IMG/VR virus record: IMGVR_UViG_3300028361_000020
Span: 1-64,000 of that record
Direction: 5' to 3' (one strand)
From: a virus
Lineage: Duplodnaviria > Heunggongvirae > Uroviricota > Caudoviricetes
Length of the DNA stretch: 64,000 nucleotides
Below the pieces are notes generated by a model that was given only the letters and a program-made list of their open reading frames with translations, did no database searches and was not told the origin of the DNA. The position numbers and the translations under genes were made by a program. Positions within the stretch are counted from its first letter, which is position 1, and the number at the start of each line of letters is the position of its first letter. Below, piece by piece: positions 14,836 to 58,554 of the stretch.

Positions 14836-16230
14836 TTAGTTGCGAATAGTTGGATCAACTTGCAGATCTTGTGCAGTCTTAATCATAATCATTTGCATGA
14901 ACTGATCAACTGTTCCGAGTGCATTCCCGGTCGTACCACCTTCGCCGCCTGCGCTGCCGCTGTTAAACACTGTGCTCGGAACATTGATCGTTGCTGCTGC
15001 CGCGGCCCATACTGTCTGCGCTTGTACCCAAGCATCAAGTTTTTGAGCAAGTGCTCCGTCAGCAAGTAGAATTGCTTCTTTTGCATATGCTTCAGCGTCG
15101 GCTGCAACTGTTACACTTTCGGCTTCGATTCGTGCTCTTTCTAAGTCGATAACGGCCGTTTCACGTGCAAATTCAGCTTGCTCTAACCGTTGTCCAGCAG
15201 CAATGAGTACCAGCTGCTTTTGAGTTTCGGCACCAGTTGTTTGTTCAATTTGTTCAACTTGTGCCGTGGCCTGGCGACGTGCAATGTCGGTTGCACCAGT
15301 TTGGATGGCCAGCAAACGCTGTTCTTCCTGTTCCAAGCGCTGTTCACGTGCTACAACTCTACGTGACGATGCAGCTTTTCGTGCAATGATCTGATTCTCG
15401 TACTCATCATCCGGGTCAATGCCTTCGAGGATCGCCTGGCTTACTGTAATACCATACTGTGAAGAAACTGTTTCCCTACGAATCGGCTCGCCGTTTTGAT
15501 CTAGGATTTTCTCCATCACTAATTGTCTTACGTCAGTGTCACCAACCTGGTCTAAGTTTTCAGTTGCTTCGTCATCATTGGGTCTTGCTCTACTTGGAAC
15601 AATTCCGCCTGATTGATTAAGACTGATTTGGCGCACCATTGCCCGGCCTTTTGTGATTGTGTCATAAAATTCAGTCTTGAATTGATCACGCTGTCCGCCG
15701 CTGTAGTATTCTTCCATGGTAAACATGTTTGCAACGCTGTCGATACTTGCATTCACATCTGGAATCAGTGTGGAATTAACCAGCTGACTCAATGTTCGGA
15801 AGGTTTTTGACATCTCTACAAACTCTACCGGATCGTTTGGAATTTGAAAGATTGTGCTTTGCGTCACGTCGCCAGTCCAGTTGTCTGCCAATCGCACACG
15901 GTAAGGAGCATTGACTGCGTTTCCAACAGCATCCGGATTGGCAGTGTTTACAACTGTGATAAACTTGGGCCAAGTTGTACTGATGCCCCATCCTGCAAAA
16001 TACCAACCGGTATCCATCACTGCTGATTCTGTACTAAAGATAGTACGCACATGCGTTTGGAATCCTGCATCGTTATAGCCGAATGCGCTGCTGGATAGTA
16101 CCAATGTGCAGGCGCCGAATGCGCCGCCTGCAATGACTTTTTTGATTCGTAAAAGTTCTTTTGGAAAGGGAATGAACAATGCTGCAAGTGCAACAAAGAG
16201 CAAAATTCCCGATAAAATTAGACCACCCAT
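14836..16230 (-). CDS. SPFH/band-7 (stomatin/prohibitin/HflKC-like) membrane protein, 464 aa
   Basis: N-terminal TM helix; coiled-coil-rich EQ/AEA segment (ETAVIDLERARIEAES..AEAYAKEAILLADGALAQ) typical of band-7 proteins. Confidence 0.65.
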   Translation of the reverse strand: MGGLILSGILLFVALAALFIPFPKELLRIKKVIAGGAFGACTLVLSSSAFGYNDAGFQTHVRTIFSTESAVMDTGWYFAGWGISTTWPKFITVVNTANPDAVGNAVNAPYRVRLADNWTGDVTQSTIFQIPNDPVEFVEMSKTFRTLSQLVNSTLIPDVNASIDSVANMFTMEEYYSGGQRDQFKTEFYDTITKGRAMVRQISLNQSGGIVPSRARPNDDEATENLDQVGDTDVRQLVMEKILDQNGEPIRRETVSSQYGITVSQAILEGIDPDDEYENQIIARKAASSRRVVAREQRLEQEEQRLLAIQTGATDIARRQATAQVEQIEQTTGAETQKQLVLIAAGQRLEQAEFARETAVIDLERARIEAESVTVAADAEAYAKEAILLADGALAQKLDAWVQAQTVWAAAAATINVPSTVFNSGSAGGEGGTTGNALGTVDQFMQMIMIKTAQDLQVDPTIRN

Positions 16231-16256
16231 GGTGTGTCTCCTATTGAGGTTAAGTG

Positions 16257-16544
16257 TTAAAGTTTGATTTTTTGTATAACGCCATCAAGCGTTACACGAG
16301 CTTCTTCGTAGTTTTCGATCCAGTACCAGACTGAATTTTCTACGTATTTTGCAAGCAGATAGATGCTGCCAAACAGTGCCACGTTGGGCAAAATGTATTC
16401 CAGAAAGATTTGCATCAGTGTCTCCTCGTTAGGTACATTATAATGTACAGTAGCATTGTCTGTGTATGCTGTCAATGATAAAGGCGGAACTAAATCCGCC
16501 TTTATCTTTATTATCACTGGGTTGTACGAATAGTTACAGAACAA
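16257..16544 (-). CDS. small membrane protein, 95 aa
   Basis: ORF with a hydrophobic segment. Confidence 0.35.
   Translation of the reverse strand: MFCNYSYNPVIIKIKADLVPPLSLTAYTDNATVHYNVPNEETLMQIFLEYILPNVALFGSIYLLAKYVENSVWYWIENYEEARVTLDGVIQKIKL
16468..16495 (-). terminator. intrinsic terminator hairpin GGCGGA-ACTAAA-TCCGCC with flanking T/A runs
   Basis: aaaggcggaactaaatccgcctttat. Confidence 0.5.
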
Positions 16545-16720
16545 TCATCTTCGTTGTTGAATTTCATTGTTTCCTTGACTTTTTCGTCTAAAATGCGTTT
16601 GTGGTTAGCTTTCCAAACGCTTGCAACCCACGCAGTGTATTCCTGTCTGTTAGTATCTTTCAAATTCAACATCAAGGTATTCCTCCTCTTTAAGTGCAGC
16701 ACGTTCGCGCACTTGGTCAA
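16514..16720 (-). CDS. hypothetical protein, 68 aa
   Basis: ORF; overlaps the nadV 3' end. Confidence 0.3.
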   Translation of the reverse strand: MTKCANVLHLKRRNTLMLNLKDTNRQEYTAWVASVWKANHKRILDEKVKETMKFNNEDDCSVTIRTTQ

Positions 16721-18077
16721 AAGTATCTTCGATCAACAGCTTTCCGTTGCGGAAAATAGGGCGTAACAAGTTGCCTTTCTTGTCTGCAACAGATTTAGGA
16801 ACAGTACGGAAACTGCCGCCGCAGACGCCGGTTTGGTATATAAGTCCGAGGCGACCTTTCTTTGAAGTCTTACCTCCGTGGATTGGGTCTTTGAAGACGT
16901 CAGTCCACTCGCCATCTGATGCCATAATTGCGCTTGCTTTCATGGCGTACTTTAAGCTATCGCGGTTGACTAATTGCAGCAATCCCCCGCCCATTCCAAA
17001 TGCAATATTATCAATGCTCAGTCCTGCCCGGATCAAGTTATTGATCAATTGTGGCAAGCTGTGTTCACTGATACCGTCGCCTTGAATTACACGAATGTAG
17101 GACGGCAGTATTCTAAAGCCTTTTGAATTAACAGTAAATCCAAACTCTTCCATTAGAAGTTCTACAACATCAATTGGAACAGTCAACGGATCCCCACTGT
17201 CTGGCCGAACAACCAATGTGCCACCTTTATCGATGATCTTTTCTTTTAGTTCGCCCCACATCTTAATAGCTTCGTAGATGTTGTAGCTGTCGCTCACACA
17301 TGCATAAATTTTGCCTTCGCCACCGAATAGCTCGATCATGTTTTCGTAGGCAGCTTTTTCGTTTTCTCTGCCCCAGCTTGTGATAGTAGAGTGTTCACTT
17401 GCTGGAATTGAAAATCCTGGCATGTCTGCGCCATAGTAACGTCTTGCTCCTACAATTCCTTCAATGGTGTCGCTGCCCATAAAGTTAACAAGGTGACCCA
17501 TTCCACCAAGCTTTGCAGCTTCGTGTGATGTTGCGCCTCGTGCTCCAAAGTCGTGCAGCTTGAACATAATCTGATCCATTACTGGAACATCGCTGGTTGT
17601 TGCCAGCGCACGAGCAATGATAGCTTTCATTTTACGTGATTTTGTTGCAACAGTCGAAGGGTACCAAACACCTCTTAGTGTAAGTGGCTCCAAAAAGCCT
17701 GGCAACCACCAAAAACGCGGATCAGTGTTGATGATCTGCATTTGTACGTTTGAAATAGGCATGTATGTGCCTTCGGCAACTGCTTCGATTTCGATTGGGA
17801 GACGACCGCTGAATTCCTCAACAATAATGTCCCATAGTTCTCTATAGAAAGGTTCACCGTGCTGAGTGATGATCATTTCTGCTTCATCAATCATTTCAAT
17901 GGTAACAACCTCTCCTATTAGATATTCTTTGATCAACGCCTGCGCGCCGAAGAACACTGAGTTCTCCTCGCCTCCTCGACTTTCAATATATGAACTCACA
18001 TACTGTGTGCCTTTTGGAAACTGGTGTGGTTGACTGTACTTGTACGAGTCTGATAGTAGTATAATATTATGTTTCAT
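16650..18077 (-). CDS. nadV: nicotinamide phosphoribosyltransferase (NAMPT/NadV)
   Basis: N-terminus MKHNIILLSDSYKYSQ; 475 aa; family-typical length and motifs throughout. Confidence 0.9.
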   Translation of the reverse strand: MKHNIILLSDSYKYSQPHQFPKGTQYVSSYIESRGGEENSVFFGAQALIKEYLIGEVVTIEMIDEAEMIITQHGEPFYRELWDIIVEEFSGRLPIEIEAVAEGTYMPISNVQMQIINTDPRFWWLPGFLEPLTLRGVWYPSTVATKSRKMKAIIARALATTSDVPVMDQIMFKLHDFGARGATSHEAAKLGGMGHLVNFMGSDTIEGIVGARRYYGADMPGFSIPASEHSTITSWGRENEKAAYENMIELFGGEGKIYACVSDSYNIYEAIKMWGELKEKIIDKGGTLVVRPDSGDPLTVPIDVVELLMEEFGFTVNSKGFRILPSYIRVIQGDGISEHSLPQLINNLIRAGLSIDNIAFGMGGGLLQLVNRDSLKYAMKASAIMASDGEWTDVFKDPIHGGKTSKKGRLGLIYQTGVCGGSFRTVPKSVADKKGNLLRPIFRNGKLLIEDTFDQVRERAALKEEEYLDVEFERY

Positions 18078-18097
18078 TTTAGAAATCCTCTAAGTTG

Positions 18098-18427
18098 TTA
18101 TGCCGATCCTCTTTGAATCGGACTTTCGGGTAAGGTTGATTCAGGAGCAGCGGATTGCCACTCCTTTGTCCATCTTACAAGATCTGTATAACCTGCGGGC
18201 CAATCATCTCGCCCAAGGTCGGTTAATTTTCCACAGCACATGCACTCGAATGAAACTGCACTTTCTTTGCTGCCCCAACTTTCACCAGACACACCAGGAA
18301 AAAATCGTAAATCACTGCGGGTAACTTGTAGAATAGCTTCGCAACCTTTGCCGCCATTTCCCCAGCCAGAACATGTTACTTCAGTAGCCCAGCTGTGTCC
18401 AAACTTTCCTGGTTTAATTACTTTCAT
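18098..18427 (-). CDS. hypothetical Trp/Gly-rich protein, 109 aa
   Basis: ORF. Confidence 0.4.
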   Translation of the reverse strand: MKVIKPGKFGHSWATEVTCSGWGNGGKGCEAILQVTRSDLRFFPGVSGESWGSKESAVSFECMCCGKLTDLGRDDWPAGYTDLVRWTKEWQSAAPESTLPESPIQRGSA

Positions 18428-18438
18428 TGTTGTGTTCC

Positions 18439-19554
18439 TTATCCGATGTTAATGAAGTTGTCAACAATCGCAAAGTGATCCTCAAACATTTGTGTACGGT
18501 CTACTTCGTTAAACGGTACCCATCGTGCTAGTTCTGCATCGTCACTGCCTTTTACTTTTGGCAGAGTTTTATCAAACCCGAGGTCGATGAAAAACGCAGT
18601 TGTAATGGTGCGGCCGCGGGTTGATCGGAATGGATCATCAAAGGTCTTTGATGCCCGGATGCTGCCGCGCAGTACCGGAACTGGAACTTTGATTTTTGTT
18701 TCTTCTTTTAGCTCGCGCAGCGCACCGGCCTCGAGGCGTTCTCCTGGATTAAGGAATCCACCAGGCAGTGCCCAAAGTCCTATACCCGGTGCATGCTTGC
18801 GCTTGACCAATAAAATGTGTCCACTTTGCACTACAACTGCATCAGTTGTTACAAAGGTGGGTGCATATGGTGCGGATTTCCAGGATTCTTTGTATTGTTG
18901 AATCATACTGTATTCAACAAACAGTGTTGCAAATTCTTCGTGTGCCCATTCTCTAACAATGTCGTCCAGTATATCAGCAGATTCTGCTGGCATGGTATCA
19001 CACATAAATAATTCTACACCGCGGTAAGGACCGTGTTCAAAAATAGTTTCACGGATCGGTGTTGCATCAATTCCATCTACATTGGCAACACTTTCGCTGC
19101 CCCATGTAGGGAAGATTTTCAAGTAAAAGCTGGTTCCGTCTTTTTCGTGGCCAATGAGACCAATGCGCAGAGGATCGGGGGAGTATTTCATTGCGCTGAA
19201 CACCACAGATTGTACAGCAGCAACCCATTTGTTGTCGTCGTATGGATAATCACACACTGGCACAACTTTGACATTGTCCTGTGGATACACCGCCTTGATC
19301 ATCGACTTGCGTTCTTCAAACGTGAATGGGTTGCGAGTATTTCTTGCACTAAAGCTGGACCCAAGCACAAGGATCACTTCTTTTGCCAGTTTCAGTGCAG
19401 CGTCAACCACTGCTTTGTGCCCCAGGTGAAATGGCTGGAACCTGCCAATGAACACCAGTGCGTCGTAGCGGATTTCTGTTTTGGAATTTTCCGATAGTGC
19501 AGTAGTGGCTTTTAGTTTGCTATGTATAGTGTCGTTAATTAAGTCGTATTTCAT
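18439..19554 (-). CDS. natV: bifunctional NMN adenylyltransferase / Nudix hydrolase (NatV-type)
   Basis: (H/T)xGH motif FIGRFQPFHLGH plus Nudix box GGFLNPGERLEAGALRELKEETKI. Confidence 0.9.
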   Translation of the reverse strand: MKYDLINDTIHSKLKATTALSENSKTEIRYDALVFIGRFQPFHLGHKAVVDAALKLAKEVILVLGSSFSARNTRNPFTFEERKSMIKAVYPQDNVKVVPVCDYPYDDNKWVAAVQSVVFSAMKYSPDPLRIGLIGHEKDGTSFYLKIFPTWGSESVANVDGIDATPIRETIFEHGPYRGVELFMCDTMPAESADILDDIVREWAHEEFATLFVEYSMIQQYKESWKSAPYAPTFVTTDAVVVQSGHILLVKRKHAPGIGLWALPGGFLNPGERLEAGALRELKEETKIKVPVPVLRGSIRASKTFDDPFRSTRGRTITTAFFIDLGFDKTLPKVKGSDDAELARWVPFNEVDRTQMFEDHFAIVDNFINIG

Positions 19555-19604
19555 TTGCTAAAACTCCTTTAGCGTGTTTAGGCAAAACTCTATGTCTTGC
19601 TTTT

Positions 19605-19633
19605 AGTATACACTCGCAACAAGCGTGTGTCAA
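19605..19633 (-). promoter_or_regulatory. consensus sigma70-like early promoter TTGACA-17-TATACT for the NAD operon
   Basis: Minus strand reads TTGACAcacgcttgttgcgagtgTATACT. Confidence 0.6.
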
Positions 19634-19697
19634 GTATTAGGTGGCAAGATATGTTATTTTGCCCACATCCAACTTCCATTTTCTTTCTGTGTAAACA

Positions 19698-20705
19698 TCA
19701 TATACCCCTGTTAATTAGTTTGAGAACTGAGGCGTGCGCCTGTTCGGTGCGTGTGACAAAGTCGGTGTCACTGATTACAATATAGTTGCGGTTGTTGTCA
19801 ACTAAAAATTTCAACATCTCTTCAAAGAACCATTCACGTTGTTTTTGTTTTTCGACAATTCTGGTTCCGTCCTGTACCCACTTAACAGTAGGCGCCAGAA
19901 CAATATACAAATCAAAGTGTTGCTTCTTTGCGTACTCCAGTGCCATTTCCAACGGCTTGTCCAGGTACAAGTGCGAAAACAAGTAAGTAGTGAACGCTTC
20001 TGTGTCAGTTACTGTAACTGGCATTTCTGCCTTGTACGCATATTCATTAACCCAGTTGTCTTGGATTTTGACAATAGCTTCGAAGTCTTTTTCGTTAACT
20101 TCTTCTTTTACTTCAGTTATCATGCGGCCGTATTCTTGAATAGGAGTTCCGATGTTGCGCAAGCGAAAACTTTCAACTAATATAGACTTGCCTGTTGATT
20201 CCGGTCCAACTACTGCTACTCTCTTGTGAAAACTACGCTTTGCAGGTGCTGACATAAAACTCCAATTTTCTAACAGCGCCTCTCTAATTGCTGTGCTGCT
20301 AATAGGGTGCATTTCACGATGCGGGTCAATTGGTAACCATCGGCAACCGAGCACCTCTGCAGCTTTCTTGCCATACATATCCGAACTTACAAAGTAATCA
20401 AGCTTGGGGAGGTGCAGTTCAAACTCCGCCTTCCATTTGTCCCAAACTGTTGGGTCTATGATTGTGCCATTTTCGTCTACTTCGCTCGACGGGATGTTGT
20501 CTATGTGTTTGATAATGTGTACATTTTGGTTATCAGCAAATAGTTCGCATAACCACTTGTAACGTGTGGACAGCGGAACAACATCAGTTTCATTTCCAGA
20601 GACCATAATATATAGTTGATCTACTACAGATAATGCAGTGATAAACATGTTCAAATGACCCAGGTGTAAGTTTGTAAACTTGCCTATTGTACCGCCGATT
20701 GTCAT
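19698..20705 (-). CDS. NadR-like bifunctional NMN adenylyltransferase / ribosylnicotinamide kinase (no HTH domain)
   Basis: N-terminal GKFTNLHLGH nucleotidyltransferase motif; C-terminal Walker A VVGPESTGKS kinase domain. Confidence 0.75.
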   Translation of the reverse strand: MTIGGTIGKFTNLHLGHLNMFITALSVVDQLYIMVSGNETDVVPLSTRYKWLCELFADNQNVHIIKHIDNIPSSEVDENGTIIDPTVWDKWKAEFELHLPKLDYFVSSDMYGKKAAEVLGCRWLPIDPHREMHPISSTAIREALLENWSFMSAPAKRSFHKRVAVVGPESTGKSILVESFRLRNIGTPIQEYGRMITEVKEEVNEKDFEAIVKIQDNWVNEYAYKAEMPVTVTDTEAFTTYLFSHLYLDKPLEMALEYAKKQHFDLYIVLAPTVKWVQDGTRIVEKQKQREWFFEEMLKFLVDNNRNYIVISDTDFVTRTEQAHASVLKLINRGI

Positions 20706-29373: not shown

Positions 29374-29756
29374 AAAGAAGAGGCCTTATATGCAGCCGCT
29401 TCTTTACGTTTGGATTTCCATGTTAGTGAATCACGCATTTTTTCATATGCTGCAATCTTTTCATCATAGAAGTTCATCATACTATCAAGTCTAGCAACCG
29501 CATCAGGAGAGGTGTCGCCTGCGCGGCTGTTTTCACACATCATGTTCATCTTTGCCAGATGACAATGAACAATAGAATCTTGAAACATTTGACCTAACAT
29601 ATTAGAATCTTCATAGTCAATGGTGACTTTAGTCATCTTTGTTAATCTCCGAAACAACTTGTATTCTAGCACGATACATGCCACCCTTGATCTTTTCGCC
29701 ATCGGTTTCACCTTTGGAAAATACCTCAGCAAACTTAACTCTTTTAGCTTGATCAA
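29370..29756 (-). CDS. hypothetical protein, 128 aa (start uncertain; overlaps the cca 3' end)
   Basis: ORF. Confidence 0.3.
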   Translation of the reverse strand: MIKLKELSLLRYFPKVKPMAKRSRVACIVLEYKLFRRLTKMTKVTIDYEDSNMLGQMFQDSIVHCHLAKMNMMCENSRAGDTSPDAVARLDSMMNFYDEKIAAYEKMRDSLTWKSKRKEAAAYKASSL

Positions 29757-30894
29757 ATACTTTCTTTAGTTTCTGCAAATGTTGTACATCTACATTTTCA
29801 CAGCCTAGTCTGCCGCGTTCGTCGCACTCGCCTACTCTTAGCAGCAAGTCTACAACTTCTGGATTTCTCCAAGCATCCATTTCTGTAAACATTTTTACAA
29901 ACGTTTTTGGATTCAACGAGTCTAACTTGTGCATGTGCATGTGAAATCTTGTGGTCTTCATCGCACGGTTGCGCATATTAGAAGGCACAGACAGCCTATT
30001 GGCAAAGCTTTCTACAACAGCAACACCTGTGACTTCATGGCCGTAGTGCTTGGGCAGTGCTGCTCTAGGCGTTAGACCTTTGCCAAAGTCGTGTACCAGT
30101 GCAGCAAATCGCGTTTCTAGGTCGTAGCCAAAATCAACTGCGGCAGTTAGTACCAACATTGTGTGCTCGTACGCATCGCCTTCGGGGTGCCATCGCCGCG
30201 CCTCTAGTGCAGTCTTTAGCTTGTACACTTCGGGAAAAATCACATGCAAGGCATCCGTTTCCAACAGTGTGTCAAAAAACAGGCGCGCATGAGGCTCCAT
30301 TAGTGCTCTTCTTGTTTCTTTCCATACACGCTCACTTACTAGTTCATTAAGAACACCGGACTTGGCCATTTTTGAAACCATTGCAACTGTTTCGGGTGCA
30401 ACTGTCCACTCAGGACCTAGTCTGGCGCGAAATCTCGCCAGACGCAATACTCGTACAGGATCTTCGGCAAATGCATCACTGGTGTGCCGAAGGACTTTTG
30501 CTTCTAAATCTTCCAAGCCACCATATGGATCAAAGAACGCCCAATTGTCGTTGGTGTCAGTGTCTATTGCAAATTCACTTTCGGTCAGTTTCTGCATGGC
30601 CATGCTGTTGACAGTTAAGTCTCGTTGGCCCAAGTCTTCCAACAGTGTAACATCTGTACCAAAATCGCTGGTGAATCCCAAGTAACCTTCGCCAGTTTTA
30701 TGTTCGCGACGTGCAAGTGCATATTCTTCATTGGTCTCAGGATGCAAAAATACAGGAAAATCAGCACCAACTTGTCCAAAACCGTCAGCTAGCATTTGCT
30801 CGGGTGTAGAACCAACTACTACCCAATCTCGGTCTTCGACAGTACGCCCCAGCCGCATATCTCGTACCGGGGCGCCTACTAAATGTCTTTCCAT
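29629..30894 (-). CDS. cca: tRNA nucleotidyltransferase (CCA-adding enzyme, class II with HD domain)
   Basis: N-terminus HLVGAPVRDMRLGRTVEDRDWVVVGSTPEQM..DFPVFLHPETNEEYALAR is close to E. coli Cca; HD motif ALVHDFGKG. Confidence 0.85.
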   Translation of the reverse strand: MERHLVGAPVRDMRLGRTVEDRDWVVVGSTPEQMLADGFGQVGADFPVFLHPETNEEYALARREHKTGEGYLGFTSDFGTDVTLLEDLGQRDLTVNSMAMQKLTESEFAIDTDTNDNWAFFDPYGGLEDLEAKVLRHTSDAFAEDPVRVLRLARFRARLGPEWTVAPETVAMVSKMAKSGVLNELVSERVWKETRRALMEPHARLFFDTLLETDALHVIFPEVYKLKTALEARRWHPEGDAYEHTMLVLTAAVDFGYDLETRFAALVHDFGKGLTPRAALPKHYGHEVTGVAVVESFANRLSVPSNMRNRAMKTTRFHMHMHKLDSLNPKTFVKMFTEMDAWRNPEVVDLLLRVGECDERGRLGCENVDVQHLQKLKKVFDQAKRVKFAEVFSKGETDGEKIKGGMYRARIQVVSEINKDD

Positions 30895-37650: not shown

Positions 37651-38566
37651 CAGCAACCTCCATCCATTTAGCACAAGCTTTCCATTGTACATTTGTGTTG
37701 ATGTGCTTTGATACATAATGCAATAACATCTCGCGCATGTCGTCGCCATCCAGCAAGCGAAACACAAAGCTGGCGTCGGTCTTGTTTTGCAACTTAGGAA
37801 TAAACTTTGTAGCAACCGACTTACGATCTGGATATTTTACAGCTTTTTCATAAAGTGCCTTGACACGATCTTCGGTGCGACCAAACGCATCCCAGAATCG
37901 AACTTCGAAATCGCGGATACGATCTGCATCTACTTGTGGCAACTGGCCGATCACATCGTCGAGATCCTCGTTGACAATCAATGCAACAATGTTACGATCG
38001 AACCGCACACGATCCAGTGTTTTATGGATACGCACATACCAGTCGTTCTTGCCTTTGTACATCTCGCCGTTGAAGCTGATGATAAACCCTTCACGACCTT
38101 CGTCGTTGCGGTGCTTGGCAACGTAGTCATCCAGCGTACCATCAACCGAGTCATGTAACACAACTTGTGTAATTGAGTCCGGTGTTGAATTCTGGCGACC
38201 CAAGTAGTTGCCAGTTAGATTATGACGGATTGCCAGCAGCACAAGGTCAGCAGATCGATATCCTAGCACAATCTGGTTATCGGGCGCTACAAACTCAAAC
38301 AATGGAGTAACTCCCATTTTTACAGCTTTTTCTAACCAATGCATTTCTGCTTGGTAGTTAGAACGAGTACGCATGTACCTTTCGGCTTGCTCGCTCACAT
38401 CAGTTACCCCCATCTTAGTAGCAAGACGGACAACGCCATTAATGATCAATGGTCTAATCATTGAGTTATGCACAAGAATGTTATTAGCAAAAAAATTATT
38501 AGTAGATGTCTGGATGTCATATCGGAGAGAATTGTTTCTAATTTTTTTAATATTTGCAATTTTCAC
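37634..38566 (-). CDS. rnlA: RNA ligase 1 (RnlA) C-terminal fragment preceded by a 34-aa split-intein C-half (IntC)
   Basis: MKIANIKKIRNNSLRYDIQTSTNNFFANNILVHN|S resembles DnaE IntC and ends with HN+Ser; the downstream extein SMIRPLIINGVVRL...FEFVAPDNQIVLGYR matches T4 Rnl1 after KEDG. Confidence 0.8.
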   Translation of the reverse strand: MKIANIKKIRNNSLRYDIQTSTNNFFANNILVHNSMIRPLIINGVVRLATKMGVTDVSEQAERYMRTRSNYQAEMHWLEKAVKMGVTPLFEFVAPDNQIVLGYRSADLVLLAIRHNLTGNYLGRQNSTPDSITQVVLHDSVDGTLDDYVAKHRNDEGREGFIISFNGEMYKGKNDWYVRIHKTLDRVRFDRNIVALIVNEDLDDVIGQLPQVDADRIRDFEVRFWDAFGRTEDRVKALYEKAVKYPDRKSVATKFIPKLQNKTDASFVFRLLDGDDMREMLLHYVSKHINTNVQWKACAKWMEVADAVVV

Positions 38567-38602
38567 AAATTTTCCTTTACAAAGTAGGTGTTTGTCTAGT
38601 TT

Positions 38603-38610
38603 TTATATAA
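38603..38610 (+). promoter_or_regulatory. T4-late-type promoter box TATAAATA upstream of the plus-strand homing endonuclease gene
   Basis: tttttaTATAAATAcc, then SD-like aaggat 8 nt before the ATG. Confidence 0.4.
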
Positions 38611-38634
38611 ATACCATACACGAAGAAATAAAGG

Positions 38635-39651
38635 ATGTCAACTATGAAATGTTATGTTTGTGAAGATAAAATAGAAGAAAAGTTCAGTCATTTTTATACA
38701 TGCGCTAACGGCTTATCCAAACCGGAACATTTAATAAATCTTATATGCTATAATTCTAACACAAGCAAGTCAGATTTTAAAAATGACCTAATAAATATGT
38801 ATGTTGTTCAGGATTTTTCAATTAAGGATTTATTAGATCATTTTAACATACAACGGTTATCAAGTAGTACGTTATATAAGATTATATATTACTTAGGTAT
38901 TCCTAAGAAGACTACCACGAGATCAAAACGAACTCAAGAAAAATACAAAAAAACTTGTCTTGAAAAATACGGCACAATAAATGCTCTTTCCAAAGATACA
39001 ATTGCATATCATAAACGAAATGATACTGTAAAACGTAAATATGAGGTCGACAATGTCAGATCGGCGCAAGAAATAAAGGATAAAATTAATATTACTATGC
39101 TTGCCAAATATGGAACACTACGAAGAACAAATATTGAGAAGCAGAAAGAAACAAAAGCAAACTGGTCTAATGAGTACAGAGCTGCGCTTGGTGATAAGAT
39201 TAGTGCTGGCCGTAAAAAGTGGTGGGCTAATTTAACAGATTCAGAAAAATATAATGCTTGTAAAAGATCTGGGCTTAACCAATATTCTGGCAAAATGAAT
39301 TCTATTGAGTCGGTAATTGCCGAGGCGCTAGCTTCATTAGGAATATCGTATATATTTTCATATTTTATTGGGAATAGACAATTTGACTTCAAGATAGGCA
39401 CTATATTGATTGAATGTCAAGGTGATTTCTGGCATGCTAACCCAATATTTTATAACGAAGGAGACGTTGTAACTCATCCAGGTAATAAAAATAAACCAGT
39501 ATCTGATATTTGGGAAAATGATAAAAAGAAACAATTACTTGCCGAAAAGAAAGGATTTACAGTTATTGAAATATGGGAATATGAAATTAATAACTGTACT
39601 GATCTACCCCAACTTATTCTTCAAAAAATAGAAGGTCTTCTTCCCCAGTGA
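38635..39651 (+). CDS. free-standing homing endonuclease-like gene (N-terminal Zn finger, KYGT repeats, C-terminal Vsr/DUF559-like PD-(D/E)xK nuclease domain) lying between the two rnlA fragments
   Basis: Only plus-strand gene in the region; AT-rich; C-terminal ILIECQGDFWH ... KGFTVIEIWEYE resembles Vsr/DUF559 motifs. Confidence 0.6.
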   Translation: MSTMKCYVCEDKIEEKFSHFYTCANGLSKPEHLINLICYNSNTSKSDFKNDLINMYVVQDFSIKDLLDHFNIQRLSSSTLYKIIYYLGIPKKTTTRSKRTQEKYKKTCLEKYGTINALSKDTIAYHKRNDTVKRKYEVDNVRSAQEIKDKINITMLAKYGTLRRTNIEKQKETKANWSNEYRAALGDKISAGRKKWWANLTDSEKYNACKRSGLNQYSGKMNSIESVIAEALASLGISYIFSYFIGNRQFDFKIGTILIECQGDFWHANPIFYNEGDVVTHPGNKNKPVSDIWENDKKKQLLAEKKGFTVIEIWEYEINNCTDLPQLILQKIEGLLPQ

Positions 39652-40303
39652 GCTCATCTGCCCGTATATAATCGCTTATATCGGTGCACCAAATTTTGTG
39701 ATTTCCAGTAAGTTTTAGGATATGCCCATTAGTCAATTCTATTTCATACCAATCATCACATTGGGTTTTAATAGCCGATGCCAATACAGGTGTCCACATT
39801 ATCTGCTTTTTTAAATTCTGCCCTAATACAAGTCCATTATAGTTAGTTTCACATAAAAATTTTATAGTTTTGCCACCATCAGGTGTTGCAATAATACTAT
39901 CTTCATCAAGACACCCGTCCATTTTTTCCATAACAGTGTGCGGACGTGTCATGTCGATGTTTTTTGACAGTGTTTCTTCACGCTCGTTGATGTTAAAAAA
40001 CTTGTGGAACGGACGAGACATAAGTTCTCCGTCTTCACCAAATATCAATCCGCGGCATTCGCGCTTGATCCTGCTGGACAGGCTGCGTTCTTCACGCATC
40101 TTTGCGCTGCCGCCTGCAACTGCAATTGGTGGAAAGGTGTCTGGCATGGACACGGCATAGTTAATTACAGTAAAGCCGTCGCGCTCTGCAACAATAAACT
40201 CGTCACATCCTTTGATATGCGGAAGTACATCGTTGATAGTGCGTATCTCGGGAAATTTGTAAGACATGTTGCCTCCATTAAACTCTAGCACTACTCGGTG
40301 CAT
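39614..40303 (-). CDS. rnlA: RNA ligase 1 (RnlA) N-terminal fragment fused to a split-intein N-half (IntN)
   Basis: RECRGLIFGEDGEL..RPFHKFFNINE..NIDMTRPHTVMEKMDG matches T4 Rnl1 up to the KxDG adenylation motif; it is followed directly by intein block A CLDEDSIIATPDGG and block B TNGHILKLTGNH. Confidence 0.8.
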   Translation of the reverse strand: MHRVVLEFNGGNMSYKFPEIRTINDVLPHIKGCDEFIVAERDGFTVINYAVSMPDTFPPIAVAGGSAKMREERSLSSRIKRECRGLIFGEDGELMSRPFHKFFNINEREETLSKNIDMTRPHTVMEKMDGCLDEDSIIATPDGGKTIKFLCETNYNGLVLGQNLKKQIMWTPVLASAIKTQCDDWYEIELTNGHILKLTGNHKIWCTDISDYIRADELTGEEDLLFFEE

Positions 40304-50439: not shown

Positions 50440-50514
50440 TGGTGCGCCCGGAAGGACTTGAACCCCCGACCACTGATTAAACTTCAGCTGCTCTACCTAC
50501 TAAGCTACGGGCCA
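50440..50514 (-). tRNA. tRNA-like with irregular acceptor (bulged G); anticodon loop AGTTTAA (TTT?)
   Basis: D GCTT-AGTAGGTA-GAGC; T GGGGG-TTCAAGT-CCTTC; CCA encoded. Confidence 0.4.
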
Positions 50515-50983: not shown

Positions 50984-52540
50984 TTACGGATTTAATTCTT
51001 CATACGCTGCTTTGCAGGTTGCATAAAAGTTTGTCATTTCTGGAAATGTATTGAGGAAATCCTTGCCGCGTCTGCGGTCGTATTCATTTACAAACTGGTA
51101 GAACGAACTTCTTCCGTGGGTAATTTTTTTAGTTTTGATATCTGTAGGATGAAGGTCACATGCAGTCATTACATCCAATAAGATTCTTTTTAATTTAAGC
51201 GATTCGTTGCTTAAAAACCCTGTATTACCGTTCCACTCGTCGGCAGCATTTGCGTACATAAAATTCACAGAAGGCAGCAAGAATTCAGCAACCAGTTCCT
51301 TGGTTGACAACGCCACATCCAAAAACTCTGGGTGTCTAACATAAGGAATATCAATGCCAATCCGATTGTATGAACGATGCGTGTTGGTATACCCGGATGT
51401 TTTGTATTTTGTCAACCCGAGGTTTACTGTGTTGTCTAAGTTGACTCCACTTTGGTCTAATTGCTGAAATATGTGGTGTTTGTTGTACGTCTTCTTCAAT
51501 GACAGCACATATTCTAAAAAGTCTAGGAAGGTTGGGAGACTGAACAAGTTAAACGCTGCCATAAATGTAACGCGAGTATCGGTTGTGTTCCCAAGAAAGT
51601 ATGTTAAATTTTCTTTGAGCATGTTCCAATTCATACCGTCTCGGCTGTATTCGGCCTGACCCTCGACACTTTCGGCACTGAGGAATAACGTAACTCGCTT
51701 GACACATTTTTCATCAACCAATTGATTTGACAACTTGGTAAACTGTTTCCACAACTTGTCGGGCGGGCAACCGTTGCTGTTGATGGCAAACTCCATGTTG
51801 GGATTTGGATGTTCCAGCATGTATTCCATTAGTTTGACAGTGTGTTTGCTCATCAACGGTTCTCCGCCTGTGACACGCAATGTGTGCAGATGCGGCAGTG
51901 CTTCGGGCAACCATTTCCAGAATGCATCAGTGTATGGATTGTCTTCTCGATTTTTAATTTGCTCTGCTGGATTGCCGTTGTACTGTACGCCCGGGAATAA
52001 ATAGGCACCGTGTTCTGTTATTTCATCTACCCATTTGCTGCTGAAGCTTGGCCCACAATATGCACATTTAAAATTGCATACATTACTGAAACTAATTTCC
52101 ATATATTTTGGAAATACATTCTCGTCGCCCTTTAGTGCAGCAATTTCATCAAAGTTATGCACACTGTACGGATCCAAACTTTTTAACGTGCGATCGCTGG
52201 TCTCATTGGTGTTGTCCTCGATGCGCCAACAGAAGTCACATTCTGATGGTCTTTTGCCGTTGAGCATTTGCTTGCGGGCTGTCTTTTTATGCTCTGTGTT
52301 GTGCAATGCACTAGGATTGACTTCGAGTTCGTTCAACGGAATTTTATGTGCAGTGGGATGGTGACAACTGTGTGTTAACCCTGATCCCAAGTGCATAGTA
52401 ACTTGTGTCCATTTTGCCAAACAAAAGCCCGGACCAGTTTCGTTGAGTAATTCTTGCATCTTGTCGCAGTTGTTTTTACTATGCTCGATATAGCCACTGG
52501 GCTGTTTGTCCCATTCAACATCATCAAATTTCTTGGTCAT
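50984..52540 (-). CDS. radical SAM enzyme (MoaA/PqqE/SPASM-like CxxxCxxC) with a roughly 140-aa Cys/His-rich N-terminal extension, 518 aa
   Basis: EISFSNVCNFKCAYCG cluster at about residue 150; GGEPLM SAM-binding motif. Confidence 0.65.
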   Translation of the reverse strand: MTKKFDDVEWDKQPSGYIEHSKNNCDKMQELLNETGPGFCLAKWTQVTMHLGSGLTHSCHHPTAHKIPLNELEVNPSALHNTEHKKTARKQMLNGKRPSECDFCWRIEDNTNETSDRTLKSLDPYSVHNFDEIAALKGDENVFPKYMEISFSNVCNFKCAYCGPSFSSKWVDEITEHGAYLFPGVQYNGNPAEQIKNREDNPYTDAFWKWLPEALPHLHTLRVTGGEPLMSKHTVKLMEYMLEHPNPNMEFAINSNGCPPDKLWKQFTKLSNQLVDEKCVKRVTLFLSAESVEGQAEYSRDGMNWNMLKENLTYFLGNTTDTRVTFMAAFNLFSLPTFLDFLEYVLSLKKTYNKHHIFQQLDQSGVNLDNTVNLGLTKYKTSGYTNTHRSYNRIGIDIPYVRHPEFLDVALSTKELVAEFLLPSVNFMYANAADEWNGNTGFLSNESLKLKRILLDVMTACDLHPTDIKTKKITHGRSSFYQFVNEYDRRRGKDFLNTFPEMTNFYATCKAAYEELNP

Positions 52541-52810
52541 TGTTTATTTTTACCACTTCTTACTGCAACTATAACACAAAAGTTTATATGTGCAACGTAT
52601 TTATTATAACTAATAGTGTGCTGTTACGCCAAAGGAAAACCAGGTCTATAACGCAGGCTACTATCCATATTTTTCCCTTGGCGCTCTAGCCTTGCCACTA
52701 TTGCTAGCCCGACAAGGTTTCTCTCGCGTCTAGGGTACTTCGTTCCACTCATTATAAGATGGCTGCCTCGAAGCCAACTTCCTAATAGTTTTTCTTAATA
52801 TCCTTGTCTA

Positions 52811-53017
52811 CTAAGTGTTATTTATATGCGGCGTTACATCAGACATCTTGCGGCGAACTGTAATGCCCTTGCCAGACGGTGTTGTACGAACAAATACACC
52901 AATATCTTCGCCGCCATTTTGCAAAATATCTCCGTGCATATCGAAAGTCGGCTTTGATTTTTCAACTACGCTAAGAATAAAAGGCAGGGGCTTTCCTGGC
53001 ACAAAGTAAAGGTTCAT
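52811..53017 (-). CDS. hypothetical small protein, 68 aa
   Basis: ORF upstream of the rSAM gene. Confidence 0.3.
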   Translation of the reverse strand: MNLYFVPGKPLPFILSVVEKSKPTFDMHGDILQNGGEDIGVFVRTTPSGKGITVRRKMSDVTPHINNT

Positions 53018-53020
53018 GGT

Positions 53021-53203
53021 TTATTCCTTTTGCGCATTTAAGAGTGCATCTTTGTCGGATAGCGCAATACCAGTGTATTTAATGTGCGCCTCCTGATTCA
53101 TTCCGCAAAGATGACACTCTGCTGGGCGATAATAATCTGCTTCAAATTTATGGTATGTTACCACGCAACACCAACAGCCGTCTATCTTGGCAAACGTTGT
53201 CAT
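53021..53203 (-). CDS. Cys-rich micro-protein (DGCWCCVV ... ECHLCG), 60 aa
   Basis: ORF, 7 Cys in 60 aa, immediately upstream of the rSAM gene on the same strand. Confidence 0.35.
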   Translation of the reverse strand: MTTFAKIDGCWCCVVTYHKFEADYYRPAECHLCGMNQEAHIKYTGIALSDKDALLNAQKE

Positions 53204-53402
53204 GGTTTATTCCTTCTTATTTCGTAGTCAAGTCTACGCTGGGCTTGTTACGGCCTGCCTTGCTGTTGAAAGTGATACTAATCTCATCCACTTGTGATAA
53301 GAAGTTGATTCAGTGTGAACGTGGCCCCATTCGCGTGCCTTGCGTTGTTTTTCATATTCTGCACACGCAATCGCCTCTGGTTCGTCGTACTCGTTTACAA
53401 CT

Positions 53403-54048: not shown

Positions 54049-54074
54049 AACTTTATCCTTTGATTTTTATATTT

Positions 54075-54150
54075 GGTACCGGCTCTTGGGATTGAACCAA
54101 GGACCTCCAGTTCCACAAACTAGCGCTCTAACCAACTGAGCTAAACCGGC
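54075..54150 (-). tRNA. tRNA-His (GTG)
   Basis: Acceptor GCCGGTT/AGCCGGT; D GCTC-AGTTGGTTA-GAGC; loop TTGTGGA; T CTTGG-TTCAATC-CCAAG; CCA encoded. Confidence 0.8.
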
Positions 54151-54455
54151 ATATTTTCTCTTTTAATAGTGTCTAGCACACGTTCTCTTTCATGTGCTAG
54201 ACGACCAATTTCGTTTGCTAGCGTTACTAACTCGTCATTGGAGTAATCCATATTGAAGATTAGTTCGGCTACAAATTCCTTGCGATTGTGTGCAGACCAG
54301 TATTTGCGCACACGACGGACAATCTCGTTACTGTTCTTAGAGTCTTGATTGTTCATCCACTGTTCAAGAAGCTTTTGCATGTTAGTCAAGTGTGCTGGTT
54401 TGGCCAGCCGCACGCGCTGCTCGCGTTTCGCCACGTTCCAGCGCATCGGGATCAA
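54141..54455 (-). CDS. hypothetical protein, 104 aa
   Basis: ORF; its stop overlaps the tRNA-His 5' end. Confidence 0.4.
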   Translation of the reverse strand: MIPMRWNVAKREQRVRLAKPAHLTNMQKLLEQWMNNQDSKNSNEIVRRVRKYWSAHNRKEFVAELIFNMDYSNDELVTLANEIGRLAHERERVLDTIKRENMPV

Positions 54456-54606
54456 GGTTCAGTGCATCGGCAGTGCGTTGTGCTTTTTCTTGCCCTACCA
54501 CAGTGGTATATTGCTTGCCGCCAACTATGACATTCCACAAGTTTGTTTGCACTCGTTCGGATTGTGTGTTTGGAGTGATGGTAAAGTCATTGCATTTACG
54601 CTTCAT
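54382..54606 (-). CDS. hypothetical protein, 74 aa
   Basis: ORF; promoter TTGACA-17-TACATT at 54657-54685. Confidence 0.35.
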   Translation of the reverse strand: MKRKCNDFTITPNTQSERVQTNLWNVIVGGKQYTTVVGQEKAQRTADALNLDPDALERGETRAARAAGQTSTLD

Positions 54607-54773: not shown

Positions 54774-54877
54774 TGGTGGAGAGAAATGGAATCGAACCAC
54801 TGACACCAGGCTCTTGCCCGTGCTCTACCTCAACAAATTCGTTCTGCAGAACTCCTTCGTCTCTGAGCTACCTCTCC
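54774..54877 (-). ncRNA. tRNA-like RNA (104 nt) with about 29-nt insertion (palindrome GTTCTGCAGAAC) in the D-loop and a tetraloop in place of the anticodon loop
   Basis: Acceptor GGAGAGG/TCTCTCC, T-arm AGTGG-TTCGATT-CCATT and CCA are canonical; the body is aberrant. Confidence 0.35.
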
Positions 54878-54894
54878 GTAATTTCTATCCAACG

Positions 54895-54975
54895 TCATTA
54901 CTGCAACAGGAATCGAACCCGTTTTTCTAGCTGACTGCTAGCGTCCTATCCAGTAGACGATACAGAATCTGCATA
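54895..54975 (-). ncRNA. degenerate tRNA-like element (T-arm ACGGG-TTCGATT-CCTGT and D-arm-like hairpin; no acceptor)
   Basis: Signature hairpins only. Confidence 0.25.
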
Positions 54976-55094
54976 CAACCTCTCAACGAAGTGGTTGTAT
55001 GCAGGACCTTGGATAAGGCAGTCGTTGCTGCCTAAGCTTGCTATCCTAGTCTTTAAACCAGGAAGGAAGTTAATCTTTCTCGCAAGCTATTGTT

Positions 55095-55171
55095 GGACTA
55101 GGATGGACTTGAACCAACGACCTCCCACGCGACAAAGCATAGGCGCTCTTCCAATCTGAGCTACGTAGTCC
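55095..55171 (-). tRNA. tRNA-like; D-arm and T-arm canonical, anticodon arm unresolved, no CCA
   Basis: GCTC-AGATTGGAA-GAGC; GTTGG-TTCAAGT-CCATC; acceptor GGACTAC/CTAGTCC (6 of 7 pairs). Confidence 0.35.
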
Positions 55172-57771: not shown

Positions 57772-58554
57772 TCAACTAATTTTTATGCCTCGTTGTATTA
57801 AATCCTCAGCAATTTTTTCTGCGGCAGCAGCGTTGGTCTTGATCCCTGGGTGTGCTAGGTCTCTTGCGTGATCAACGTTTTTAAATGGAGTAATTCCAGC
57901 ATGGTCACTGAAGAAACTCCCTTCGCAATATAACGTTTTGTTTCTCCATAATGCTCGATCGGCCATCATATAAAATTCCGACGTACCTTGCCAATTGTGC
58001 CTAGCACAATACCCAGGAGACTGAGGCAAGTAACAGCATATAAATCCAGGTTTGGAGATATTGCTATATCGATGTGGCCCAGTCCAAATTTGCACGATTG
58101 CTTTTGGGTGCGGATAGTGTTCGTGCAGAATAAGAGAATTCCAAGAACTAACGTCAATTGCACTTCCTGCAATTCCTAGATTAACTGTAGGAATGTTTAG
58201 AAGTTTTTCCAGCTGCGAACAAACAGTATCCTCGTTGGCCAGGCCAATTCCGTACACATTTGAACATCCTAGCACAACTATGGAATTTTTCCAATCTGTG
58301 CTGGCAAACTCGCCGTGTCGAAATCCTTCCTGATTTTGACTATATGAGATTTTTTTGTTTTGATAAACCCAGTCTTTTCCTAGTCTTTTCTTATTTTTTT
58401 TAAAAAGTTTTTCGGTGTCGGTTGGACTGAAATTTTTAGAAATTGCCTGTTCGAGGCCCCGATTTGATATTAATCTTTGCATAACAGTATTTATTATATT
58501 ATCTATGCAGGACACTAGTCTGCTTACCATCCGGTGCCTATCCGGTGCATCCAT
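57772..58554 (-). CDS. hypothetical protein, possible SGNH/GDSL-type hydrolase, 260 aa
   Basis: IVVLGCSNVYG near the N-terminus is GDSL-like; weak. Confidence 0.35.
   Translation of the reverse strand: MDAPDRHRMVSRLVSCIDNIINTVMQRLISNRGLEQAISKNFSPTDTEKLFKKNKKRLGKDWVYQNKKISYSQNQEGFRHGEFASTDWKNSIVVLGCSNVYGIGLANEDTVCSQLEKLLNIPTVNLGIAGSAIDVSSWNSLILHEHYPHPKAIVQIWTGPHRYSNISKPGFICCYLPQSPGYCARHNWQGTSEFYMMADRALWRNKTLYCEGSFFSDHAGITPFKNVDHARDLAHPGIKTNAAAAEKIAEDLIQRGIKIS

Follow-up and report, generated by a model that had tools for sequence, protein, structure and literature searches.

The radical-SAM gene and its neighbourhood

The DNA analysed here, a 64-kb window of the genome of a T4-type phage, carries on its minus strand an open reading frame of 518 amino acids (50984..52540), located between the genes for tRNA-Lys (50440-50514) and tRNA-His (54074-54150) in the tRNA/early-gene region. 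There are 28 tRNA genes around it, and genes for thymidine kinase, a CCA-adding enzyme and NAD salvage are close by. In T4-type phages the tRNA region is a place where accessory genes accumulate in general. An Rfam scan of the interval 50-56 kb found tRNAs alone, and megablast of the region against phages gave no match. A sigma70-like promoter match (TTGGCG-18-TATAAT; 52603..52632, minus strand; 10 of 12 positions matching) lies about 60 nt upstream of the start codon, but is only suggestive, because such sites are no more numerous in the region than in shuffled sequence.

The reading frame is a real gene, with thousands of homologues, and an identical protein is encoded in several samples, on at least 18 contigs. 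An earlier note on this DNA had recognized it as a radical-SAM enzyme with an extra cysteine-rich domain ahead of a distal CX3CX2C motif, an assessment that is supported, that domain probably being cluster-binding. The radical-SAM core (about residues 146-350; 51491..52105, minus strand) contains CNFKCAYCG at residues 155-163, close to the position given in the note, its cysteines being C155, C159 and C162, and GGEPLM at residues 225-230, of which GGE (225-227) is the SAM-binding motif. Membership of the radical SAM superfamily is indicated by the Pfam profile PF04055 (33.6 bits, against a gathering threshold of 29.5), by the CX3CX2C and GGE motifs and by a core fold of the partial TIM-barrel type. 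The core is preceded by an N-terminal domain (residues 1-145; 52106..52540, minus strand) and followed by a family-specific helical domain (about residues 351-518; 50987..51490, minus strand) with a single invariant cysteine, C509. The AF2 model of the whole protein has a pLDDT of 90.4 and a pTM of 0.90; a sequence search of the PDB with the enzyme gave no match.

An N-terminal twitch-type domain and the family NF033640

Twitch domains are defined by the pattern CX9-15GX4C, a gap, and CX2C, in which a beta-hairpin lies between the first two cysteines and a helix comes after it (PMC6231123). This arrangement is found in residues 40-104 of the 518-residue protein, both in the sequence (C40-X13-G54-X4-C59 ... 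C101-X2-C104) and in the predicted models, which place a hairpin between C40 and C59 (residues 46-50/55-57 in the full-length model, 49-51/56-59 in that of the isolated domain) and helices at 69-110 after it. The four cysteines and G54 are invariant among 23-29 homologues of 37-77% identity, as are C155, C159, C162, the GGE motif and C509, and five histidines of the N-terminal domain (H57, H60, H61, H65 and H80). Since all the family-invariant residues are retained and the reading frame is full length, the gene is intact. The list of N-terminal residues in the earlier note was thus correct for C40, C59, H60 and H61, whereas C25 is not conserved and the 'C91, C94' of the note were a miscount of C101 and C104. 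The domain occupies an unusual position: twitch domains generally lie C-terminal to the core, but here the signature comes first and the core begins at residue 146. Such a signature suggests that there is a second Fe-S cluster, ahead of the catalytic core and not behind it. As a lone query, the N-terminal domain matched none of the solved structures.

What had been regarded as an atypical domain turns out to be the defining trait of NCBIfam NF033640 (N_Twi_rSAM; "twitch domain-containing radical SAM protein"), a family characterized by just this permuted order. The NF033640 profile matches the whole protein (E=1.6e-86; 290.9 bits against a cutoff of 170), residues 38-506 aligning with profile positions 3-398 of 398. 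The possibility of a housekeeping role, raised in the note, found no support among NCBIfam profiles: MoaA reached 36.6 bits (cutoff 284), NrdG 23.9 (131) and QueE 18.9 (260), models for MiaB, RimO and HemN were absent from the match list, and the viperin-like antiviral radical-SAM profile gave 18.2 bits against a cutoff of 180. On these profile scores the gene is a further member of an already catalogued family, and is not a housekeeping radical-SAM gene. Our literature search found no paper on NF033640 and no characterized member, the family having only been catalogued.

The same order of motifs, an N-terminal C...C...CxxC and then a CX3CX2C core, is shared with phage members of the family in the Vibrio phages K566/K567 (VPHK566_0303, 0305, 0306 and 0308) and in the Ralstonia phage RsoM2USA (gp349). 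The window enzyme shares 37% of its residues with gp349 and about 23% with the copies in K566, and scores against the cutoff of 170 are 316 bits for gp349, 202 for K566 0303 and 193 for K566 0306, compared with 291 for the window protein. The K566 and RsoM2USA genes belong to arrays or islands, whereas the window copy stands alone. T4-type phages do have NF033640 genes, K566 four of them, and the remark on T4-type phages in the note is to that extent inaccurate.

Among characterized enzymes one comparison is with BtrN, the 2-deoxy-scyllo-inosamine dehydrogenase of butirosin biosynthesis and the prototype of twitch radical-SAM enzymes. Both have a radical-SAM core and one auxiliary cluster (predicted in the case of the window enzyme), with one cysteine before the hairpin, one after it and two after the helix (PMC6231123). 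There is also a resemblance in setting: the surroundings of NF033640 genes are of a carbohydrate type, and DegT-family aminotransferases are encoded close by. The parallel for butirosin is the DegT-family aminotransferase BtrS. BlsE (cytosylglucuronate decarboxylase, PDB 7vob) aligns over the core alone, with 13% identity, and has no counterpart to the N- and C-terminal domains. Unlike the SPASM/twitch maturases of RiPPs (SkfB, SuiB and those of the anSME type), the window enzyme lacks an RRE, a SPASM motif of seven cysteines and a conserved precursor peptide, and has its domains in permuted order.

The small upstream reading frames

A 60-residue reading frame is indeed present upstream on the same strand (53021..53203), but it has five cysteines (C10, C12, C13, C30 and C33), rather than seven, and is not directly adjacent to the enzyme gene: the 480 nt between them hold a reading frame of 68 residues (52811..53017) and a 270-nt spacer (52541..52810). 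The earlier note had suggested an enzyme-peptide pair, the 60-residue product being either a substrate or an Fe-S/zinc partner; as a RiPP-type system, the enzyme would crosslink the peptide or modify it in some other way. The micro-ORF has no homologues: its only match among 5.8 billion proteins was itself, and tblastn gave nothing in 50,697 phage genomes, nor in 215 fetched loci, of which about 130 have a gene of family NF033640. Nor does it occur in the closest relative with the enzyme gene (locus L054), where the enzyme is 75-77% identical, again stands alone, and is preceded by a homologue of the 74-residue reading frame located at 54382-54606 in the window, so that roughly 1.8 kb including the micro-ORF is a lineage-specific insert in the window phage. 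Moreover, the spacer carries the promoter-like site described above, Pfam searches found no RRE/PqqD domain in the enzyme or in the scanned reading frames of 60, 68 and 82 residues, and the likeness of the micro-ORF to the RPxECxxC motif of the enzyme is no better than expected by chance (E = 1-9). The micro-ORF is thus not a co-conserved precursor gene adjacent to the enzyme, as would be expected for a RiPP maturase. Because it is not conserved, the idea of a pair is largely refuted, and we regard it as highly implausible; judged by sequence comparison, the micro-ORF is an orphan early gene unrelated to the enzyme. As the claim that a T4-type phage carries such a peptide-modifying pair fails, the feature is an ordinary accessory gene.

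A reading frame of 82 residues downstream was considered as a partner, having been kept together with the enzyme in L054 (79% identity), but was rejected, as among its 45 homologues it occurs without the radical-SAM gene in related phages (loci L216-L218).

Gene islands and the proposed substrate

NF033640 comprises more than 5000 metagenomic proteins. It is very common in marine viral metagenomes, the count of IMG/VR viral contigs being at least 538, and occurs also in the cultured phages just mentioned and in metagenome-assembled genomes (MAGs) of Bdellovibrionota. In 80 IMG/VR loci its surroundings recur: a conserved protein of about 300 residues with a GT-A-like DxD motif is encoded no more than three genes upstream of a family member in 73, the gene set c2+c4+c1 is present in 64, usually preceded by a tail-fibre gene (matching phrog_19602 and the Peptidase_G2 IMC domain), and 54 contain more than one family member (at most 6), often as tandem arrays of paralogues. 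Neighbouring genes specify transferases (GT1, GT2, GT7+LamG, carbamoyltransferase, DegT aminotransferase, sugar C-methyltransferase) and other enzymes (UDP-Glc dehydrogenase, NDP-sugar epimerase, a nucleotidyltransferase-cupin fusion). In the Bdellovibrionota MAGs, arrays of up to eight copies lie inside glycan-type clusters, and in phage K566 the four members have a GT8-like gene and one annotated as PagP for neighbours. Profile searches of the PDB with two partner families gave a weak nucleotidyltransferase match for one and nothing else.

The window itself retains little of this. When 36 neighbour clusters were compared with it by tblastn and HMMs, the only matches were the radical-SAM gene, a reading frame of 260 residues (57772..58554, minus strand) and, marginally (E=5.6e-4), an NMNAT-Nudix reading frame, which was hit by the nucleotidyltransferase-cupin cluster. 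The 260-residue product, which is SGNH/GDSL-like and contains GCSNVYG and D..HP blocks, is 50% identical (E=7e-74) to one encoded in locus L086 (13073-13825) and 41% to another in L081 (12538-13353), both adjoining radical-SAM paralogues, and it matches the HMM of cluster c19 (E=7.8e-11), whose representative matches DUF6071 and, weakly, GDSL. It is the sole other window gene with relatives in the same radical-SAM/glycan islands, and a tentative candidate for a functional associate.

The best explanation, to which we would give an even chance, is that the gene encodes an intact, stand-alone, two-cluster radical enzyme of the NF033640 type, acting as a tailoring enzyme on a sugar or glycoconjugate, and that the micro-ORF is an unrelated orphan. 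The [4Fe-4S] cluster of the core would cleave SAM to give a 5'-deoxyadenosyl radical, which would abstract a hydrogen atom from the substrate; the auxiliary cluster, fully ligated by cysteine, would serve as an electron sink or relay by analogy with BtrN, and C509 may be a hydrogen-atom donor. From the gene context of about 130 loci, the substrate would be a sugar, nucleotide-sugar or glycoconjugate, and a tailoring reaction of the kind of oxidation or epimerisation is likely, directed at a glycan of the host envelope (LPS-type) or of the phage fibres. In the window phage the enzyme would have become uncoupled from the usual tail-fibre/glycosyltransferase island to serve as an accessory gene of the tRNA/early-gene region, possibly working with the product of the SGNH-like gene 5 kb upstream. 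This association of the family with glycans is one of guilt by association, read from gene neighbourhoods, and the island is absent from the window, so the substrate of the window enzyme could differ.

Might the substrate instead be a protein? A maturase acting on a tail-fibre or other virion protein, or on a secreted or host protein, with the island glycosyltransferases then decorating the modified residue, would suit the position of NF033640 genes directly 3' of tail-fibre genes in most viral loci and weak NCBIfam matches to peptide maturases. It would also suit seven Bacteriovoracaceae loci, the only ones of their kind, in which a PqqD-like (RRE-type) protein of 95 residues and an S24-like peptidase flank the enzyme, a hint of peptide or protein substrates. 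We nevertheless consider it unlikely, given that no RRE was found in the enzyme or the small reading frames scanned in the window, that the viral copies have no adjoining conserved small precursor gene (the one conserved small downstream reading frame, of 82 residues, occurring in related phages without the enzyme), and that the neighbours are mostly sugar-nucleotide enzymes. The location among 28 tRNA genes and genes of nucleotide metabolism, together with the interruption of some islands by genes for DHFR and thymidylate synthase, could be taken to indicate an enzyme acting on phage tRNAs or DNA, but accessory genes of many kinds gather in this region of T4-type phages, no significant similarity to MiaB/RimO, QueE, TYW1, RlmN/Cfr or any other nucleic-acid radical-SAM family was found, and the conserved partners in about 130 loci are tail-fibre and glycan genes, not genes for tRNA or DNA modification; we therefore think this improbable.

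Equally, a phage lineage that had lost its island might retain a non-functional leftover, and it is true that, apart from the SGNH-like relative, other island clusters were not found in the window, and that, when metagenomes were scanned for the GT-A-like protein encoded upstream in the islands, the best 80 of at least 579 relatives did not include any on the contig of this phage. The island search, however, covered 64 kb of a genome of at least 251 kb, and decay is hard to reconcile with a full-length reading frame that keeps every invariant residue, recurs unchanged in several samples (at least 18 contigs) and has a 75-77% identical stand-alone counterpart in a related phage. It seems very improbable that the gene is such a remnant.

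The preferred reading, of a sugar- or glycoconjugate-tailoring enzyme, can be extended to the family in a more speculative form, which we put forward as a possibility short of an expectation: NF033640 may be a phage-spread, two-cluster radical toolkit for undescribed glycan tailoring, in which arrays of paralogues would diversify the glycan and a stand-alone copy would act directly on a sugar of the host envelope. If so, sugars in host LPS or in glycosylated phage fibres might, for example, be oxidized at a specific site, epimerized or altered by C-C/C-H chemistry, and the copy in the T4-type phage could block superinfection or evade receptor-based defence. The family merits attention for its abundance, its almost constant wiring to tail-fibre and sugar-enzyme genes, its arrays of paralogues and its permuted twitch architecture, of which there is no solved structure. 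Its chemistry, once solved, would explain a recurrent unannotated island of uncultured phages and Bdellovibrionota, and could reveal new radical carbohydrate chemistry.

Family membership and the phage that carries it

The 518-aa radical-SAM enzyme (50984..52540, minus strand) and the 60-aa micro-ORF (53021..53203, minus strand) are both present, and the enzyme does contain CNFKCAYCG (residues 155-163) and GGEPLM (residues 225-230). Pfam matches only its radical-SAM core (residues 149-269). Over its full length it fits an NCBIfam model, NF033640 ('twitch domain-containing radical SAM protein'; N_Twi_rSAM), with 290.9 bits (cutoff 170) and E=1.6e-86, and the enzyme is a new member of this catalogued, uncharacterised family. 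The outcome named as damaging to the idea of an enzyme-peptide pair was a clear match to a housekeeping radical-SAM family together with a micro-ORF not conserved in relatives: no such match was found, the NCBIfam housekeeping and antiviral models all scoring far under their own cutoffs, and the micro-ORF is not conserved (see below).

The N-terminal domain, previously thought atypical, is the defining feature of the NF033640 family. In alignments of 23-29 homologs (37-77% identity), its residues C40, G54, C59, C101 and C104 are invariant, together with histidines H57, H60, H61, H65 and H80, the CX3CX2C triad C155/C159/C162, G225-G226-E227, and one C-terminal cysteine, C509; the 'C91/C94' listed earlier was a miscount, and C25 is not conserved. 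The SPASM/twitch signature is CX9-15GX4C, a gap, and CX2C, with one cysteine before a beta-hairpin, one after it and two following a helix (PMC6231123), and C40-X13-G54-X4-C59 ... C101-X2-C104 matches it. The AlphaFold2 model (pLDDT 90.4, pTM 0.90) likewise predicts a beta-hairpin in the C40-C59 interval and helices after it. Solved structures offer no counterpart to the N-terminal domain, searched alone, or to the C-terminal helical domain of 170 aa.

The window is part of the genome of a large T4-type phage and has 28 tRNA genes, besides those for rIIB, a macro-domain protein and thymidine kinase. The phage is uncultured, as megablast against 50,697 phage genomes gave no match; at least 18 contigs (the longest of 251 kb) encode an identical enzyme. 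An NAD-salvage set (NAMPT, an NMNAT-Nudix fusion and a NadR-like CTP_transf+AAA_28 protein) occurs with an SPFH/Band-7 protein and a CCA-adding enzyme at 14836-20705 and 29629-30894 (minus strand), a gene set resembling that typical of KVP40-type T4-type vibriophages. The tRNA callers disagree across 54777-55171 (minus strand): ARAGORN gives tRNA-Asp at 54898-54967 and a tRNA with a four-base anticodon (ttgt) at 55094-55171, where Rfam reaches 27 bits (threshold 29), and misses a 101-nt tRNA-like Rfam match at 54777-54877. Elsewhere, a local GC dip to 0.354 with positive AT skew (38001-40000) falls at a 338-aa ORF (38635-39651) that may be an inserted mobile gene; just three ORFs of at least 150 aa lie on the plus strand, this one included.

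Small genes beside the enzyme

The micro-ORF was said to have seven cysteines and to lie directly upstream of the enzyme; it has five (C10, C12, C13, C30, C33), and is separated from the enzyme by a 68-aa ORF (52811..53017) followed by a spacer of 270 nt free of ORFs. Roughly 60 nt ahead of the start codon of the rSAM gene, this spacer has a sigma70-like match (TTGGCG-18-TATAAT), such sites being no commoner than in shuffled sequence. Among 5.8 billion proteins the micro-ORF found only itself, and it matched nothing in the phage collection or in 215 fetched loci (about 130 with a family member). At locus L054, which encodes the enzyme's closest relative (P0002; 75-77% identity), the enzyme and a downstream 82-aa ORF are kept as one block (71% nucleotide identity), and the gene directly upstream is a homolog of the window's 74-aa ORF (54382-54606). 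The window's approximately 1.8 kb between enzyme and 74-aa ORF (tRNA-His, a DUF7448 ORF, the spacer and ORFs of 88, 58, 60 and 68 aa) is a lineage-specific insertion. The association of micro-ORF and enzyme is coincidental. The 82-aa ORF was also considered as a dedicated partner and rejected, its 45 homologs occurring in related phages that have no rSAM gene.

Only 3 nt separate the micro-ORF from the 68-aa ORF after it, and both have the identical start context AAGGAATAAACCATG (53017-53220, minus strand), which fits small early genes packed closely together. Upstream of the rSAM gene, an element of some 185 nt without ORFs (52601-52784, minus strand; folding energy -62 kcal/mol, z = -2.8; no Rfam match) is 75% identical to L054 5711-5893, which lies in the tRNA-Leu/tRNA-Cys interval of a tRNA cluster, 2.1 kb from that phage's rSAM gene. 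The element may encode a small stable RNA of the kind represented in T4 by the species 1/2 RNAs, here as a candidate member of the tRNA region.

Glycan islands around the family

Relatives of NF033640 type exceed 5,000 proteins (E<1e-5) and are encoded on at least 538 IMG/VR contigs. Cultured phages gave one strong match, gp349 of Ralstonia jumbo phage RsoM2USA (37% identity; 316 bits on NF033640), with more distant copies in Vibrio phages K566 and K567; fold relatives in BFVD include 'MoaA/nifB/pqqE family' proteins of KVP40 and phi-pp2. The T4-type K566 (L219, 161.5-172 kb of its record) has four family genes, two above the NF033640 cutoff and two below, accompanied by a GT8-like gene and two unannotated genes of ~310-360 aa; this region adjoins NAMPT and a gene annotated PagP (lipid A acylation). 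Species-representative genomes gave 45 loci, mostly in Bdellovibrionota MAGs and some on Mb-scale contigs.

Neighbour clusters, built from our own ORF calls and blastp, revealed a common order at most viral loci: tail-fibre gene(s) (matching phrog_19602 and the Peptidase_G2 IMC domain), then genes for a 304-aa, a 115-aa, two ~280-aa and ~180-320-aa proteins, a ~300-aa GT-A-like protein (motif 'VDGDN') and the rSAM. The GT-A-like protein (cluster c1) is at most three genes upstream of a family member in 73 of the 80 viral loci, and the c2+c4+c1 set is conserved in 64; 54 have at least two family members (maximum six, and up to eight in bacterial loci). Products of the variable genes after the rSAM include DegT aminotransferases, carbamoyltransferases, NDP-sugar epimerases/dehydratases, UDP-Glc dehydrogenases, sugar C-methyltransferases, a nucleotidyltransferase-cupin fusion, GT1, GT2 and GT7+LamG glycosyltransferases, methyltransferase-like and DUF6071/SGNH-like proteins, and more rSAMs. 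Some islands (L081, L086, L091, L092, L103, L109, L116, all IMG/VR) pair a ~112-120-aa SPASM-like ORF (Pfam SPASM E=0.002) with a ~210-250-aa rSAM-core ORF, whichever of the two comes first; such pairs are two-domain rSAM enzymes in split or rearranged form.

PqqD-like and S24-peptidase-like proteins adjoin the enzyme in seven Bacteriovoracaceae MAG loci (L019, L020, L021, L025, L026, L033, L053), where the recurrent order is GT1, unknown, pol-beta NTase-like, carbamoyltransferase, GT1, (DegT), PqqD-like, rSAM, S24-peptidase-like, shorter rSAM, and a membrane protein with a conserved terminal S-P-x-x-C motif. This looks like a hybrid glycan/peptide-maturation system.

Within the 64 kb, tblastn and HMM searches with 36 neighbour clusters found no other island genes save one SGNH-like ORF and a marginal match of the nucleotidyltransferase-cupin cluster to the NMNAT-Nudix ORF (18439-19554, E=5.6e-4). 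The 260-aa SGNH/GDSL-like ORF (57772..58554, minus strand; GCSNVYG ... D..HP blocks), the only clear other island-type gene, is most similar (50% and 41% identity) to genes beside rSAM paralogs in glycan islands of marine phages. When metagenomes were scanned for the GT-A-like partner, this phage's contigs were not among the matches listed. The nearest island-type relatives of the enzyme are 66-71% identical, and the simplest history is that a T4-type lineage received a single island gene by transfer into its accessory tRNA region and kept it intact.

Likely chemistry and substrate

Two-cluster motifs, a SAM-binding core, family membership and gene context are established for the enzyme. It would cleave SAM and abstract a hydrogen atom, C509 being a possible hydrogen donor, and its auxiliary cluster, probably fully Cys-ligated, would act as an electron relay, the role proposed for those of BtrN and anSME (PMC6231123).

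The company kept by the family suggests a carbohydrate or glycoconjugate as substrate. The PqqD-like neighbours in Bacteriovoracaceae might instead point to a protein or peptide substrate other than the micro-ORF, a reading to which, beside the sugar-modifying genes of so many viral islands, we give a minor but real chance. Modification of a nucleic acid, for which the surrounding tRNA genes might speak, is improbable for a member of a family so often found among glycan genes. That the gene is a decaying remnant, stranded without its island, is more doubtful still, its reading frame and invariant residues being retained; and the pairing of enzyme and micro-ORF in a RiPP system, as first proposed from their proximity, is very improbable for a peptide that has no homologs and belongs to a block absent beside P0002. 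The window's copy is of modest interest in itself, and the NF033640 family overall is a good target for enzymology.
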